DNA of 64,000 nt from an uncultured Gemmatimonadaceae bacterium (GCA_963822945.1 CAWGJO010000020.1:192001-256000); one strand, 5' to 3'; positions 15,122-44,840 are shown, numbered from the stretch's first letter. Notes: generated by a model from the sequence alone, not told the origin. Numbers and translations are program-made.

Positions 15122-15194
<73 letters not shown>

Positions 15195-15262
15195 TCGGCA
15201 CCGGGTCACCGGCGCTGACGGCCGGGCCGAAGGACAGCATCCACAACACGACCCGGAGACGC

Positions 15263-15335
15263 GCGGGAATAGCTCAGTTGGTAGAGCACAACCTTGCCAA
15301 GGTTGGGGTCGCGGGTTCGAGTCCCGTTTCCCGCT
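15263..15335 (+). tRNA. tRNA-Gly(GCC)
   Basis: GCGGGAA/TTCCCGC; CAACC-TTGCCAA-GGTTG; T discriminator. Confidence 0.97.
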
Positions 15336-15396
15336 CTCTGTTTTCGACACATGTGATGAACCGCTGAGCGGGCCGAGAAGTTCCCGAGAGCGGTGC

Positions 15397-15470
15397 GGGC
15401 GGTTAGCTCAGTTGGTTAGAGCGCCACGTTGACATCGTGGAGGTCACAAGTTCGAGTCTTGTACCGCCCA
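15397..15470 (+). tRNA. tRNA-Val(GAC)
   Basis: GGGCGGT/ACCGCCC; CCACG-TTGACAT-CGTGG. Confidence 0.97.
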
Positions 15471-15472
15471 TG

Positions 15473-15505
15473 CCCCATGCGTCCGATGAGGAGCATGGGG
15501 TTTTT
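15473..15505 (+). terminator. Intrinsic terminator after tRNA-Val
   Basis: ccccatgc...gcatgggg followed by TTTTT. Confidence 0.8.
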
Positions 15506-15662
15506 CGTCGCCGCGACGTGCCACCGGATGTGGAAGGTGCGCCTCATTGCCTCAGTAATAGACACCTTCACGCGCCACCCCGTTGCCCCACCTGTCGCGC
15601 ACGGATATTTTTGACTGCTACGCCGCTCGGGCGTAGGTAATTGCAGGACAAGCAACTGCGTT

Positions 15663-15736
15663 GCGCCCGTAGCTCAATTGGATAGAGCATCTGACTACGG
15701 ATCAGAAGGTTGGGGGTTCGAGTCCCTCCGGGCGCG
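15663..15736 (+). tRNA. tRNA-Arg(ACG)
   Basis: GCGCCCG/CGGGCGC; TCTGA-CTACGGA-TCAGA. Confidence 0.97.
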
Positions 15737-15767
15737 TAACGCGGGTGCACCGGTACCAGACAGTCGA

Positions 15768-15841
15768 CGGGGCGTAGCTTAGCCCGGTAGAGCGCCTGCT
15801 TCGGGAGCAGGAGGTCGCTGGTTCGAATCCAGTCGCCCCGA
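15768..15841 (+). tRNA. tRNA-Pro(CGG)
   Basis: CGGGGCG/CGCCCCG; CCTGC-TTCGGGA-GCAGG. Confidence 0.97.
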
Positions 15842-15845
15842 CTGA

Positions 15846-40208: not shown

Positions 40209-42057
40209 TCACCGGGTCAGCCCCAGCGCCTTCAACCAGCCCGCCAGCCCCGGGTAGTTCGGCGCCAGGCGCGCCACCCCCATCGCCGCCGCCCGCGCCC
40301 CTTCGATGTCGCGGGCAACCGCCAGCACCAGAGAAAGCTGATACAGCGGCTGGGGGTCGTTGGGACTCAGTTGCACGGCCTGCCGCAGATAGCCCACGGC
40401 GTTCTGCAGGTCCTTGGCCTTCGCCGCAATCTCGCCCAACTCGAACGCCGTGTACTTCGACGGTTGGATGGAGTACGCGCGTTTGAGATACGCCACCGCG
40501 CGCGTCGTGTCCTTCATCTCCATCAGCGCGTGCCCGGCCAACTCGTACGGCGGCCCGGCCAGGGGTTGCTCGCGAATCAATCCCTGGTACTCCGCGAATG
40601 CCGAGTCGGGAAATCCGCGCATCTCGTAGCTTCGTCCCGACGTCGAGCTTGGCCTGCCGCCAGGGCAGCCCCGCCGACGCCAGGAAGGCGAGACTGTCCA
40701 CCGGTCCCTTCGGGCGGTACGTGCCGCGATAGTCGCTGTCCTGCGCCGCGGGCACGAACGGCCACCGCGTGGTGAGCGTGGTCACCGTGTGCTGCACCAT
40801 CCGCCGGTCGAACGGCGTGATATCCATCCCGGCCACGTACGTCGACCACGGCTTCAGACGGCTGAGTTGCACCGGCCGGCCGAGGAACTTCGCGCTGTCG
40901 AGCGCGTCGAAGAACTCGTGCCCGATGAGCGCCACGCCGGCCTGGTTGGGATGCAGGTGCTCGAGGATCAGGTTGTGCCCGATGATGCCCCCGGGCGACG
41001 CCGCCCGGAACGCCTCGACCACCGGCACGTAGGTAGCGCCTTCCTGCTTCGCCACTTCGCGGATCACGGTGTTGAATTCGCTCGGCGCCCGGAACCGGAT
41101 GACGTCCAGATCGCGGGCTCTGACGAACAGCCGTTCCGCATCGGCGGTGTCACCGCGCGCCTCGGTGGCCTGCGCCGAATCGAAGACGGCGTCGGCCCCG
41201 CCCGGCTCGGCGTTCACCGGCGACGCGAAGGGATGCATGCCACCCTCATTGCTGGCCAGGCTGGCGATGAACACCGGCACGTGCGCGGCGCGGAACTCTC
41301 CCAGGATCCGCTGGAGATTGCTGCGGAACTGGCGCACGCCCGCCTCGTACGCCGGCCCCCCGAGCGTGATCTGCTGGTTGCCCGCCACCACTTCCATGAA
41401 GCTCGCCGCCTGCTGCGCGTTGGCGGCCCGCTTGGTGAAGGCGCGGCGCAGTTTCGCAATCCCGTCGCGCAGCAGCATGAAGGTCCGGAACCGCTCCAGC
41501 CACAGATACGCGCGCACCGCGCCGGGCGACGATCCCACGCTCTCGGTGGACCCCACGCCGAGCGCGCCGTAGTACTCATTGTGGCCCGAGTAGATGAGCA
41601 CGGCGTCGGGATGCTGGGCGATCACGGCGCGGGTCTGATCGAGCACCGCGTACGTGTTGGTGGCCGGGATCGCCAGGTTGATCACTTCGACGGAATCGCC
41701 CGGCATCACGTCGCGCAGCGCGTCCTGCAACAAGTGCGAGAAGGTCCCGGTGGGCGGCCACGGAAACCCGGCGGCGGACGACGCGCCGAGCACGAAGACC
41801 CGGAATGCCTTGGCCGGTTTGTGCGCGGCAAAGGCATCCATCAGCGGCGCCGGCGGATGCTCCTGCAGCGTGAAGTAGCGGCGGCCCAGCTCCGGATTCG
41901 GCATCAGGTAGTCGCCCATGGCTGCCGGCGCGTGCACGAACACGGGAACGGCTCCCGCCGGCCAGGCTACGCGCAGCACGACTTCCACGGCACCCAGCAG
42001 CAGGAAGGGCGTGAGCAGCGTGATTGCCATGAACAGCCAGTAGCGGCCGCGCGTCAT
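40209..42057 (-). CDS. Membrane-anchored SGNH/GDSL-fold protein with C-terminal TPRs, interrupted by a +1 frameshift at ~40630
   Basis: N-terminal TM; block I FVLGASS, block II VINLAIP, block III YSGHNEYYG, block V LEHLHPN. TPR tail (AVAYLKRAYSIQP, AVQLSPND, ARLAPNY) continues in the shifted frame. Confidence 0.85.
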
Positions 42058-42215
42058 CAGAAGATGGAGTAGATGAAGGGCGCCAACGCCGACCCCTGCA
42101 CCAGCAACAGCAACGCACTGGCCAGAATCAGCAGGACGATGATGGGAAGCAGCCAGAGCTTCTTCCGCTGGCGCATGAACGCCCACAATTGCCGCAGCAC
42201 ACTCCACGTGGCCAT
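42057..42215 (-). CDS. Small single-TM protein, DUF5989/SxtK-like (52 aa)
   Basis: MATWSVLRQLWAFMRQRKKLWLLPIIVLLILASALLLLVQGSALAPFIYSIF; stop overlaps the SGNH start. Confidence 0.88.
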   Translation of the reverse strand: MATWSVLRQLWAFMRQRKKLWLLPIIVLLILASALLLLVQGSALAPFIYSIF

Positions 42216-42228
42216 CAACGACTCCGCG

Positions 42229-42642
42229 TCAGAACTGGCGCTCCAGCGCCCGATGCCGCTCGTCGGCATCGCGTGGTGCACGCGGAATCCAGCAGGTGGG
42301 GGAATCCGGATTCCGCGCCAGCGGGCTGCGGCCGAACGTCCGCCGCAGGTACCCGATGGGTGTCAACGCTACGTAATAAATGATCGCCAGCGCAATCGGA
42401 CCGGTCACGCGGCCGATCGCGTGGCCCAACGCCATCCACCCCCGCTCTACCGGCCCCAGCCGGGTCGGCACGAGCACGCCCAGCAGCAAGAGCAGGACGC
42501 CGAGAGCGAACGCCACCTCGGCCCCCAGCGTGCGGTGCCGGAACGCGAGCAGCGCCGAGAGCACGGAGAAGGCCGCGCCGAGCGTGAACGCGAACTTCAT
42601 CCCTTCGCGCCGGGTCAGTCGAGTGGGAGCGGGCGCTGCCAT
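42229..42642 (-). CDS. SxtJ-family membrane protein
   Basis: Two TM helices then P..L.P....WM.LG..IG.V....L...YY..LTP.G...R..G..PL and a terminal ERQF. Confidence 0.85.
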   Translation of the reverse strand: MAAPAPTRLTRREGMKFAFTLGAAFSVLSALLAFRHRTLGAEVAFALGVLLLLLGVLVPTRLGPVERGWMALGHAIGRVTGPIALAIIYYVALTPIGYLRRTFGRSPLARNPDSPTCWIPRAPRDADERHRALERQF

Positions 42643-44435
42643 TTCGCGGGATCCTGGGTGGGTTGGTCGCGCTTCATCAGGACGAACGGCGGCATGACGA
42701 GCGCATCGAGGTTGGTACGCATGAAACAGTCGTAGGCGTCGGCGGGCGTGCAGACGATCGGTTCCCCACGCACGTTGAATGACGTGTTCACGAGCAGCGG
42801 ACAGCCGGTGCGCGCGTCGAACGCGCGCAGCAACGCGTGCAGACCGGGGCTCCGGTCGGCGGTGACGGTCTGGAGGCGCGCCGAGTAGTCCAGATGCGTG
42901 ACGGCCGGGATGTCGGAACGCGGAACGTGCAGCCGGTCGATTCCCCACCGCGTGTCGCCCTCCACCGGCGCCAACCGCCGGTCCTCGCGCACCGGCGCCA
43001 CGAACAGCATGTACGGCGAGTCGCCGTCGATCTCGAAGTATTCGGCCGCGCGTTCGGCGAGCACGCTCGGCGCGAACGGCCGGAATCCCTCGCGGAACTT
43101 CACCTTGAGGTTGATGCGCGCCTGCATGTCCGGGACGCGGGCGTCGGCCAGAATGCTGCGCGCGCCGAGCGCGCGGGGGCCGAACTCCATGGCGCCGTCG
43201 AACCAGCCGACCACGTTGCCGTCGGCCAGCAGATCCGCCGCGCGCGCCACCGCGCCATCGCGGTCCAGTCGCTCCCACACGGCGCCCGATTCGGCGAGAC
43301 CGGCCTCGATCTCCTGGGCGGTGAACGACGGGCCGAGCAGCGCGCCGCGCATTCCGTCGTGGACGCCGTCGGCGGCGCGTGGCTGGTCGAAGTACTGGTG
43401 CCAGGCCACGAGCGCGGCGCCAAGCGCGCCGCCCGCGTCGCCGGCCGCGGGCTGCACCCAGATGCGGTCGAACAGGCCGGCGCGGAGCAGTTTGCCGTTG
43501 GCCACGGCATTGAGCGCCACGCCGCCGGCCAGGCAGAGGTTCGGCTGTCCGGTCTCGCGCCGGGCCGTCCTCGCCATCCGGAGCACCACCTCCTCGCACA
43601 CGTCCTGTACCGAACGCGCGAGGTCCATCTCCCGCTGGGTGAGCGCCGACTCCGGGACGCGTGGGGGGCCGCCGAACAGCGCCGAAAAGGCGTCGTTGGT
43701 CATCGTCAGCCCGCCCAGATAGTTGAAGTAGCGCTGATTCAGCGTGAACGAGCCGTCGTCCCGGAGGTTGAGCAACTCCTGATGGATGGCGTTTACGTAC
43801 TTCGGCTCGCCGTAAGGGGCGAGTCCCATCAGTTTGTACTCGCCCGAGTTCACCTTGAAGCCCGCATGGTACGTGAAGGCCGAGTACAGCAGCCCCAGCG
43901 AATCGGGCCAGTGCAGTTCCTGCACGAGCTCGAGGTCGCGACCGTGGCCGGTGCCGATGGACGCCGTCGCCCACTCGCCCACGCCATCGATGGTCAGAAC
44001 GGCGGCGGCGTCGAACGGCGATGGGTAGAACGCGCTGCCGGCGTGCGATTCGTGGTGTTCCGTGAACAGCACGCGTCCCTGGTAATCGTCGAGGCCGCGA
44101 CGGACGGTGCGCTCGATGTCCAGCCGGTCGCGCGCCCAGAGCGGCGCGCCGTGGCGGAATGACGCGAACCCGGAGGGCGCCATCCAGAGAAAGGTCTCGA
44201 ACACCCGGTCGAGCTTGAGCAGCGGCTTGTCGTAGAAGGCGACCGCCTCGAGTTCGGACGACCGGATGCCGGCCGCCGCCAGACAGAAGGCGATGGCGCG
44301 CGACGGGAAGTGCTCGTCGCCCTTGTTCCGCGAGAATCGTTCTTCCTGCGCAGCCGCGACCACGACGCCGTCGCGGAGGACGCACGCGGCGCTGTCGTGA
44401 TAGAACGCGGAAATGCCGAGGATGTATCGCGGCAA
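42615..44435 (-). CDS. O-carbamoyltransferase, NodU/CmcH (TobZ/SxtI-like) family
   Basis: ILGISAFYHDSAA, QEERFSR.K, HHESH, DGVGE, EYKLMGLAPYG, CLAGGVALN, QPAAGDAG, EFGPRALG.RSIL, KFRE.FRPFAP, NTSFN; TTG start inferred. Confidence 0.96.
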   Translation of the reverse strand: MPRYILGISAFYHDSAACVLRDGVVVAAAQEERFSRNKGDEHFPSRAIAFCLAAAGIRSSELEAVAFYDKPLLKLDRVFETFLWMAPSGFASFRHGAPLWARDRLDIERTVRRGLDDYQGRVLFTEHHESHAGSAFYPSPFDAAAVLTIDGVGEWATASIGTGHGRDLELVQELHWPDSLGLLYSAFTYHAGFKVNSGEYKLMGLAPYGEPKYVNAIHQELLNLRDDGSFTLNQRYFNYLGGLTMTNDAFSALFGGPPRVPESALTQREMDLARSVQDVCEEVVLRMARTARRETGQPNLCLAGGVALNAVANGKLLRAGLFDRIWVQPAAGDAGGALGAALVAWHQYFDQPRAADGVHDGMRGALLGPSFTAQEIEAGLAESGAVWERLDRDGAVARAADLLADGNVVGWFDGAMEFGPRALGARSILADARVPDMQARINLKVKFREGFRPFAPSVLAERAAEYFEIDGDSPYMLFVAPVREDRRLAPVEGDTRWGIDRLHVPRSDIPAVTHLDYSARLQTVTADRSPGLHALLRAFDARTGCPLLVNTSFNVRGEPIVCTPADAYDCFMRTNLDALVMPPFVLMKRDQPTQDPAKWQRPLPLD

Positions 44436-44601: not shown

Positions 44602-44613
44602 ACGCCTCTACCC

Positions 44614-44687
44614 GCGCGCGTAGCTCAGCTGGATAGAGCGTCGGCCTCCGGAGCCGAAGGTCACAGGTTCGAATCCTGTCGCGCGCG
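44614..44687 (+). tRNA. tRNA-Arg(CCG)
   Basis: GCGCGCG/CGCGCGC; TCGGC-CTCCGGA-GCCGA; GTTCGAATC. Confidence 0.97.
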
Positions 44688-44840
44688 TCATACCTTCTCA
44701 ATCGCACGATCGCGCGCCCGGCGGGTCCCGGGCGCATCCGCTCCGAGGTTCCCTCCCCCCAGCGGCCACTCCAGTCGATTCAGAATCGACGCCGACCCTC
44801 CCGTTCCCGCAGTCGTCCGCCGCCAGCCGCCAGCCGTTTC

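Follow-up and report, generated by a model that had tools for sequence, protein, structure and literature searches.

What is a peptide with the tail of an acyl shuttle doing in an operon that encodes a carbamoyltransferase? The question is raised by a stretch of 64,000 nucleotides from an uncultured Gemmatimonadaceae bacterium (GCA_963822945.1 CAWGJO010000020.1:192001-256000), here called the window, which at positions 40209 to 44435 of its minus strand encodes an O-carbamoyltransferase (CT), an SxtJ-family membrane protein, a DUF5989 peptide ending with FIYSIF and a membrane-anchored SGNH protein with tetratricopeptide repeats (TPRs). FXYXXF is the acyl-shuttle motif of DltX and of the C-termini of membrane-bound O-acyltransferases (MBOATs) (PMC12148441). 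The answer to which we give moderate credence is that the operon is an MBOAT-free relay in which carbamoyl passes via a tyrosine of the peptide to a presumed envelope glycan. Such a relay was proposed in a first-pass annotation made from the window sequence alone. It is now supported by the invariance of the tyrosine, by the co-distribution of the peptide and the SGNH protein and by independence from MBOATs, but complex prediction gave no interface.

The C-terminal motif of the DUF5989 peptide

The peptide gene (42057..42215, minus strand) encodes 52 amino acids and matches a single Pfam family, PF19451 (DUF5989), with an E-value of 1e-21; alignments and charge bias agree with this call. The basic RQRKK patch, the one hydrophobic helix and the tail noted in the first-pass annotation are all seen in the sequence, which ends with APFIYSIF directly before the stop codon. 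The hexapeptide FIYSIF lies at 42060..42077 on the minus strand with Tyr49 at 42071-42069, and is recognised by its FXYXXF match and its conservation. In known systems, PatA is acetylated on the Tyr of this motif, the hexapeptide of NgPatA being FIYANF (PMC12148441), and DltX of L. plantarum ends with FIYNEF and binds DltD through this tail with a Kd of 2.4 uM (PMC13653941).

As a check on chance occurrence, the 110,487 stops in all six frames of the genome were examined; 2 are preceded by F.Y..F, the second at the end of a 28-residue segment. All of the best 120 of 963 peptide homologues end with APFIY[ST][ILV]F, in a search that itself favours the motif. To remove this bias, a hidden Markov model of the peptide was built without the last 10 residues. 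This motif-blind profile found 59 peptides in 58 of 80 loci anchored on the CT (the best 80 of 593), all 59 ending with F-[IV]-Y-x-x-[FW]-stop, and 28 peptides in 40 regions anchored on SxtJ (40 of 76 matches), all 28 ending with PFIYxxF. Over all loci the motif is kept in 130 of 131 distinct peptides, and the exception looks frameshifted; some loci in this set were retrieved by means of the complete peptide, and two come from unpublished genomes (G022, G080). The Tyr is thus as invariant across homologues as the proposal demands. The terminal Phe is nearly so, being F in 58 of the 59 CT-anchored peptides and W in one.

The positively charged residues are unevenly distributed: in 125 peptides, Lys and Arg average 3.6 on the N-terminal side of the helix compared with 0.13 on the C-terminal side, and this positive-inside bias favours a predicted topology with the N-terminus inside and the C-terminus outside. 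No DltX chain was found among the 4 PDB matches of the peptide profile (E<=10). The likeness of the DUF5989 peptide to DltX is one of motif rather than of demonstrated homology.

The SGNH protein and its co-distribution with the peptide

The start codon of the SGNH gene overlaps the stop codon of the peptide gene (TGATG). Its SGNH domain with N-terminal membrane anchor (40636..42057, minus strand; PF13472, E-value 1e-12) has Ser93, Asn160, Glu366-x-x-His369 and Ala132 in block II. The C-terminal part, with TPR matches in Pfam (40209..40635, minus strand), is out of frame in the window assembly because of one extra base near 40635. This base, at about 40635, is missing from the contigs of two of four runs (X1, X2), and three relatives with printed ends of the open reading frame (ORF) have a single intact SGNH-TPR ORF of 615-617 amino acids (L161-L163). 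The frame break is either an assembly error or a strain-level frameshift. The anchored SGNH protein with TPRs described in the first-pass annotation is consequently found as one ORF in relatives but frameshifted in the window.

The catalytic residues are conserved in 150 sequences of the SGNH-TPR family: Ser93 and His369 in 150/150, Asp or Glu at 366 in 150/150 and Asn160 in 149/150. An N-terminal hydrophobic helix is present in all 145 sequences scored, and 92% are net positive before it. Block II is Ala in 145 of the 150, and loss of the block II Gly has been tied to transferase activity in PatB and OatA (PMC12148441). To judge from the alignment, the non-Gly block II of this family is transferase-like, as in PatB.

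The distribution of the genes was surveyed in 251 genomes of Bacteroidota, the phylum of a Chitinophagales record, using an SGNH-TPR profile built from 15 sequences, none of them from Bacteroidota. SxtJ was matched in 76 genomes, the peptide in 100, the CT in 118, the SGNH-TPR family in 88 and MBOAT in 102. All 76 genomes with SxtJ have the peptide, and 99 of the 100 peptide-positive genomes have the CT. The SGNH-TPR family is present in 87 of the 100 peptide-positive genomes compared with 1 of the 151 peptide-negative ones, and in none of the 19 genomes with CT but without peptide. Among the matches listed, its gene is within 10 kb of the peptide gene in 48 of the 87 genomes and on another contig in 27. 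These counts, which bear out the expected co-occurrence of SGNH genes, are descriptive because kin are not independent and few candidates were scored per genome.

Outside this sample, 30 of 61 genomes of relatives (including G022) have the peptide, as do 47 of 50 selected by way of their CT loci (including G080), often unlinked. In 20 regions from relatives, CT-SxtJ-peptide was present in 19 and SGNH in 17. An SGNH match was found somewhere in 39 of 40 CT genomes searched, and some of these have 10-25; the genome of the window has two in all at E<1e-5 in 3.97 Mb. Four genomes (G146, G162, G254, G338) have one peptide gene and 6-10 SGNH-TPR profile matches each, some of which are two stretches of one gene; this suggests that one donor module serves several transferases there.

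Occurrence of MBOATs

The first-pass annotation had described the operon as free of MBOAT. No MBOAT was found in the genome of the window, which is 88% complete, nor among 135 neighbour representatives, and one was found in 2 of 21 peptide-positive relatives. In Bacteroidota, MBOATs are not associated with the peptide (43 of 100 peptide-positive versus 59 of 151 peptide-negative genomes). The absence is not general, however, because three MBOATs were found among 70 further neighbours, at loci L149 (4484-5881) and L175, as MBOAT-SGNH pairs beside the module. Two of the three are complete and end with DFIYMRF and PFLYFQF, so both carry a shuttle of their own; the third runs off the end of the region.

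The carbamoyltransferase and SxtJ

The CT gene (42615..44435, minus strand) encodes 606 amino acids from a probable TTG start and matches PF02543 (E-value 3e-87) and PF16861 (1e-70) in a Pfam scan. The N-terminus is the catalytic domain and there is no signal-like segment, in line with the earlier assignment as a NodU/CmcH carbamoyltransferase without signal peptide. Relatives in the PDB are GdmN, a novobiocin carbamoyltransferase and TobZ. Carbamoyltransferases of the TobZ type make carbamoyl-AMP from carbamoyl phosphate and ATP. Against the NodU equivalog (NCBIfam NF041651) the protein scores 149.6 bits, where the cut-off is 1000. In a phylogenetic tree (FastTree, midpoint root, L254 and L040 left out) the CTs of peptide-positive genomes are found on one side of a branch dividing 41 from 18 rows with an SH value of 100. 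These peptide-linked CTs share an amphipathic segment after YDK/YEK/YDR, an insertion of approximately 20 amino acids, absent in L219, and a C-terminal extension ending with Asp, and the CTs of peptide-less genomes have none of the three. The amphipathic segment lies over the acceptor region and has a hydrophobic fraction of 0.46 versus 0.33.

The SxtJ gene (42229..42642, minus strand; PF19588, E-value 2e-9 in the Pfam scan) encodes 137 amino acids, a call that rests on the domain match, homologue lengths, alignment and an AlphaFold2 model. Most close homologues have 137 amino acids, which points to the ATG at 42642, overlapping the end of the CT gene, as the probable start. The assignment as an SxtJ-like membrane protein was correct in the first-pass annotation, but the start had to be moved to this ATG. 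The alignment shows three hydrophobic helices, a basic C-terminal tail with an invariant Trp118 and Lys or Arg on every loop between the segments. The AlphaFold2 model likewise has three helices and a tail (pLDDT 88, pTM 0.60). No Foldseek match was found for it at E<=0.001, and VIA gave a best Z of 7.8, on a helical hairpin. The ESM Atlas gave matches only under 0.9, two of which are clusters of 185-187 amino acids partly with DUF5989. Tyr117 of SxtJ was considered as a second carrier and rejected, being present in 49 of 54 sequences and Cys in the window.

Linkage, gene order and fusions

The four genes are tightly coupled on the minus strand, as first described, and by tblastn each is single-copy in its genome; the closest named homologues are from Gemmatimonadaceae. 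Of the 80 CT loci, 32 have an SGNH gene no more than 3 kb away (21 of the 46 whose flanks are complete), a count that is partly circular since the linked-SGNH profile was built from the same loci. The position of this gene varies, before the CT, between SxtJ and the peptide or after the peptide. AlgJ, AlgX and PatB are among the weak PDB matches of the profile. Another match, crocagin CgnD, was set aside as a leader-removing hydrolase; CgnJ and CgnK are unnamed in the main text of the source.

In split operons the usual pairs are CT with SxtJ (L214, L215) and peptide with SGNH (L152, L159, L170, L270). Natural fusions of SxtJ and the peptide also exist, of 195-199 amino acids with an intact SxtJ and the end FIYTLF, in one cluster with 36 members. 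Because of these fusions, the C-terminus of SxtJ can be placed on the same side of the membrane as the N-terminus of the peptide. An AlphaFold2 model of a fusion (pTM 0.42, tail pLDDT <50) was made from an alignment with approximately 10 misplaced columns and is uninformative on docking. Most other peptide homologues of greater length are apparently read-throughs caused by frameshifts and were not taken for fusions, and an apparent CT-SxtJ fusion in L089 was treated in the same way as a read-through. A single candidate natural CT-SxtJ fusion is found at L150:656-2857 (G069). The CT genes of L175 and L176 (G058, G012) are in many pieces, probably through assembly errors.

Genes of carbamoyl phosphate metabolism adjoin some loci, namely CarB (L106), CarAB (L152) and carbamate kinase with ornithine carbamoyltransferase (L214), and carbamoyl phosphate as donor therefore fits. 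In L214 (5991-11551) and L215, the CT and SxtJ genes lie between those for carbamate kinase and ornithine carbamoyltransferase, and the peptide and SGNH genes of the two genomes are found elsewhere (G302:C176, G166:C29). Many loci are surrounded by genes for Wzy, Wzx, Wzm/Wzt, glycosyltransferases of families 2, 4, 9 and 87, LpxB, AT3, pyruvyl transferase and exosortase, by a raw tally with no background. In L050 (5645-6886) and L052 the module, in the order CT-SxtJ-SGNH-peptide, is part of a polysaccharide cluster and is followed by a gene for an AT3 acyltransferase. In Acidobacteriota (L041:5429-7705, also L042, L044, L062 and L083) a protein of approximately 750 amino acids with 8-11 hydrophobic segments and no Pfam match is encoded directly upstream of SGNH-CT-SxtJ-peptide, preceded by an ATP-grasp protein.

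Proposed mechanism and alternative explanations

In the proposed relay, the cytoplasmic CT would be docked to SxtJ at the membrane by the clade-specific amphipathic segment and would generate carbamoyl-AMP. An assembly of SxtJ and the peptide may let the hydrophobic tail dip to the CT site, in place of the MBOAT funnel, where the CT would load carbamoyl onto the invariant Tyr, probably helped by SxtJ. Carbamoyl-Tyr would then charge the SGNH Ser to give carbamoyl-Ser, both being putative intermediates, and the SGNH protein would pass the carbamoyl group to a periplasmic or surface glycan as presumed acceptor. Several SGNH paralogues may share one donor module. Carbamoyl-Tyr is an aryl carbamate and a plausible serine-carbamoylating donor.

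Several observations weigh against this relay. Its weakest step is the loading of Tyr across the membrane, and we know of no catalytic or channel protein through which a donor in the cytoplasm could reach a Tyr that faces outward. SxtJ has just three hydrophobic helices, with no invariant polar residue in the membrane in the alignment. No SGNH gene is found in the fetched DNA of 48 of the 80 CT loci, and 13 of the 100 peptide-positive Bacteroidota lack the SGNH-TPR family, and among those whose regions were fetched, three (G230, G233, G281) have another SGNH nearby. The genome counts also overstate significance since related genomes are not independent. The broader set of linked SGNH proteins varies in its triad acid and has Gly at block II in 18 of 33. 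No glycan genes adjoin the operon in a Pfam scan of the 22 ORFs around it, and many other loci likewise lie amid housekeeping genes. In the saxitoxin cluster, SxtL, the SGNH protein, is a proposed decarbamoylase and the acceptor of SxtI is a small molecule, as described in PMC2679770.

In a complex prediction, the peptide with residues 1-389 of the SGNH protein scored 0.42, the best control 0.00, with a run agreement of at least 72% and a partner pLDDT of at least 69, and no interface was given. In a benchmark, 116 of 157 solved complexes reached the mark, as did 2 of 215 mismatched pairs, and the passes at 0.60 or below comprise 18 solved complexes and both mismatches. The score is weak support for the pairing as modelled; false passes are common in the range where it falls, and it could stem from helix packing alone or from likeness to DltX-DltD.

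The alternative that survives best, though unlikely, is that carbamoyl is added and removed by separate enzymes. The CT would carbamoylate a cytoplasmic or lipid-linked acceptor directly, with SxtJ and the peptide as anchor, and the SGNH protein, recruited or regulated by the tail, would be an outer decarbamoylase; no carbamoyl-Tyr would be formed. This is the model published for sxtI/J/K with SxtL (PMC2679770, PMC12300590), and it needs no membrane crossing. It agrees with the solved CT relatives, which are annotated as small-molecule enzymes, with the account of characterised SGNH proteins as mostly hydrolases (PMC12148441) and with the binding of the DltX tail to the esterase DltE as well (PMC13653941). 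However, it leaves unexplained why 130 of 131 distinct peptides have Tyr, never Phe, at position -4 from a free C-terminus, and the non-Gly block II in 145 of 150 SGNH-TPR proteins resembles that of a transferase. The hydrolase role of SxtL was, moreover, untested by the account given in PMC2679770.

The topology problem would disappear if the CT carbamoylated a flippable lipid or another membrane carrier held by SxtJ, from which the Tyr collects the group outside, or if a fifth, unlinked membrane protein did the loading. The hydrophobic, amphipathic CT segment over the acceptor region and the occurrence of CT with SxtJ and of peptide with SGNH at separate loci would both agree with this. Such a hidden carrier is decidedly unlikely: no recurrent fifth gene was found among the 135 neighbour representatives and the 70 further neighbours, and the SxtJ-peptide fusions suggest direct coupling.

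A real relay might also end on something other than a glycan, such as an exported small molecule, a peptide or a periplasmic protein. The saxitoxin cluster has genes of the same names and similar sizes (PMC2679770), no glycan gene adjoins the operon of the window, and its SGNH family carries TPRs, which could select a protein. The chance of such an acceptor is nevertheless small, in view of the many loci amid Wzy/Wzx, Wzm/Wzt, glycosyltransferase, LpxB, AT3 and exosortase genes and of the modification of envelope polymers by the known FxYxxF systems (PMC12148441).

Finally, that the peptide is an ordinary DltX-like acyl shuttle of an unlinked MBOAT, with the CT a bystander, is barely credible and already largely refuted by the co-occurrence counts: MBOATs do lie near the peptide in L149 and L175, but the two complete ones end with their own motif, and no MBOAT match was found in 57 of 100 peptide-positive Bacteroidota and 19 of 21 relatives, when the CT is present in 99 of the 100.

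Comparison with known systems

The relay resembles the MBOAT-SGNH systems (Dlt, Pat, Alg) in having the motif and an anchored SGNH triad, and differs in having no MBOAT. As in DltB-DltX-DltD, a single-pass microprotein of approximately 50 amino acids with a C-terminal FXYXXF is paired with an N-terminally anchored SGNH protein, but the operon has a CT and SxtJ instead of the MBOAT and carrier protein, and its hosts are diderm. PatA-PatB and AlgI-AlgJ/AlgX have the same terminal hexapeptide and an SGNH partner, which in PatB also has a non-Gly block II. Those systems use acetyl-CoA as donor and have the motif as part of the MBOAT, whereas here the likely donor is carbamoyl-AMP and the motif is on a free peptide or on a fusion with SxtJ.

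By gene names and sizes, the order CT, SxtJ, peptide of approximately 50 amino acids and GDSL/SGNH protein is of the sxtIJKL type. The saxitoxin cluster encodes a CT, two small proteins and a GDSL protein in genes of 1839, 405, 165 and 1281 bp for sxtI, sxtJ, sxtK and sxtL (PMC2679770). PMC2679770, PMC2684587 and PMC12300590 describe sxtJ and sxtK either as CT partners or as genes of unknown function, and propose SxtL to be a decarbamoylase. We infer from size and position only that sxtK is a DUF5989 gene. Unlike the saxitoxin cluster, the operon is not accompanied by further sxt-type genes in the 22 surrounding ORFs that were scanned, and its SGNH protein has TPRs. The stand-alone O-carbamoyltransferases TobZ, GdmN and NodU share both catalytic domains, Carbam_trans_N and Carbam_trans_C, with the CT, but the CT is far below the NodU cut-off and belongs to the peptide-linked clade with its extra segments.

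The module in Sinorhizobium meliloti and on plasmids

The full module is also found on pSymB of S. meliloti 1021 (SM_b20469-SM_b20472; L275/L276:9634-13836), in the order SGNH (SM_b20469, divergent), SxtJ (SM_b20470), peptide ending with APFIYTLF (SM_b20471) and CT (SM_b20472). It is likewise present on plasmids of S. fredii NGR234 and Gemmatirosa kalamazoonensis. A tblastn search of plasmids and phages with the peptide gave no match, which reflects a sensitivity limit because the CT as query then found plasmid loci holding the peptide. Approximately 6 kb from the S. meliloti module there is a cluster of glycosyltransferase, DUF995 and GH26 genes (L276:1-3830), probably the arabinose-containing polysaccharide locus, a candidate for the acceptor.

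Identified by coordinates in the supplement tables of PMC7268258, all four S. meliloti genes are non-essential in LB. That study labels SM_b20472 arcB2 (ornithine carbamoyltransferase) and a symbiosis gene. The arcB2 label is unsupported because the domain content is PF02543 and PF16861. The symbiosis call, for which 44.6 nodule insertions were expected and 59 observed, was not counted as support, and the length column in Dataset EV2 of the same study appears to be off by one row.

Surroundings of the operon in the window

The operon is flanked by genes for an ABC permease, M16 peptidases, Rho, RuvX and YceG and by a divergent tRNA-Arg. The last, tRNA-Arg(CCG), lies at 44613-44689 just upstream on the opposite strand, and a cluster of five tRNAs is found elsewhere in the window, at 15122-15842. 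A promoter and terminator scan gave matches at chance level only.

Implications

Neither the relay proposal nor DUF5989 was found in the literature searched, whose coverage left out most subscription journals. It is conceivable, at somewhat less than even probability, that SxtJ with a peptide of approximately 50 amino acids is a third, minimal device for group transfer across the membrane, beside MBOAT and AT3, which lets the cytoplasmic CT charge a Tyr arm feeding one or many periplasmic SGNH carbamoyltransferases. In that case sxtJ, sxtK and sxtL would take on a new reading as components of the transfer step, and extracytoplasmic O-carbamoylation of the envelope would be common across diderm phyla, with the peptide in 100 of 251 Bacteroidota and on pSymB of Sinorhizobium. 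S. meliloti 1021, with the whole module and four genes non-essential in LB, allows a direct test. If the relay is real, the acyl-tyrosine shuttle would extend to a non-acyl group without MBOAT or AT3. An envelope modification would be predicted for many diderm phyla, and DUF5989 and SxtJ, a widespread set of unexplained genes, would be assigned roles.

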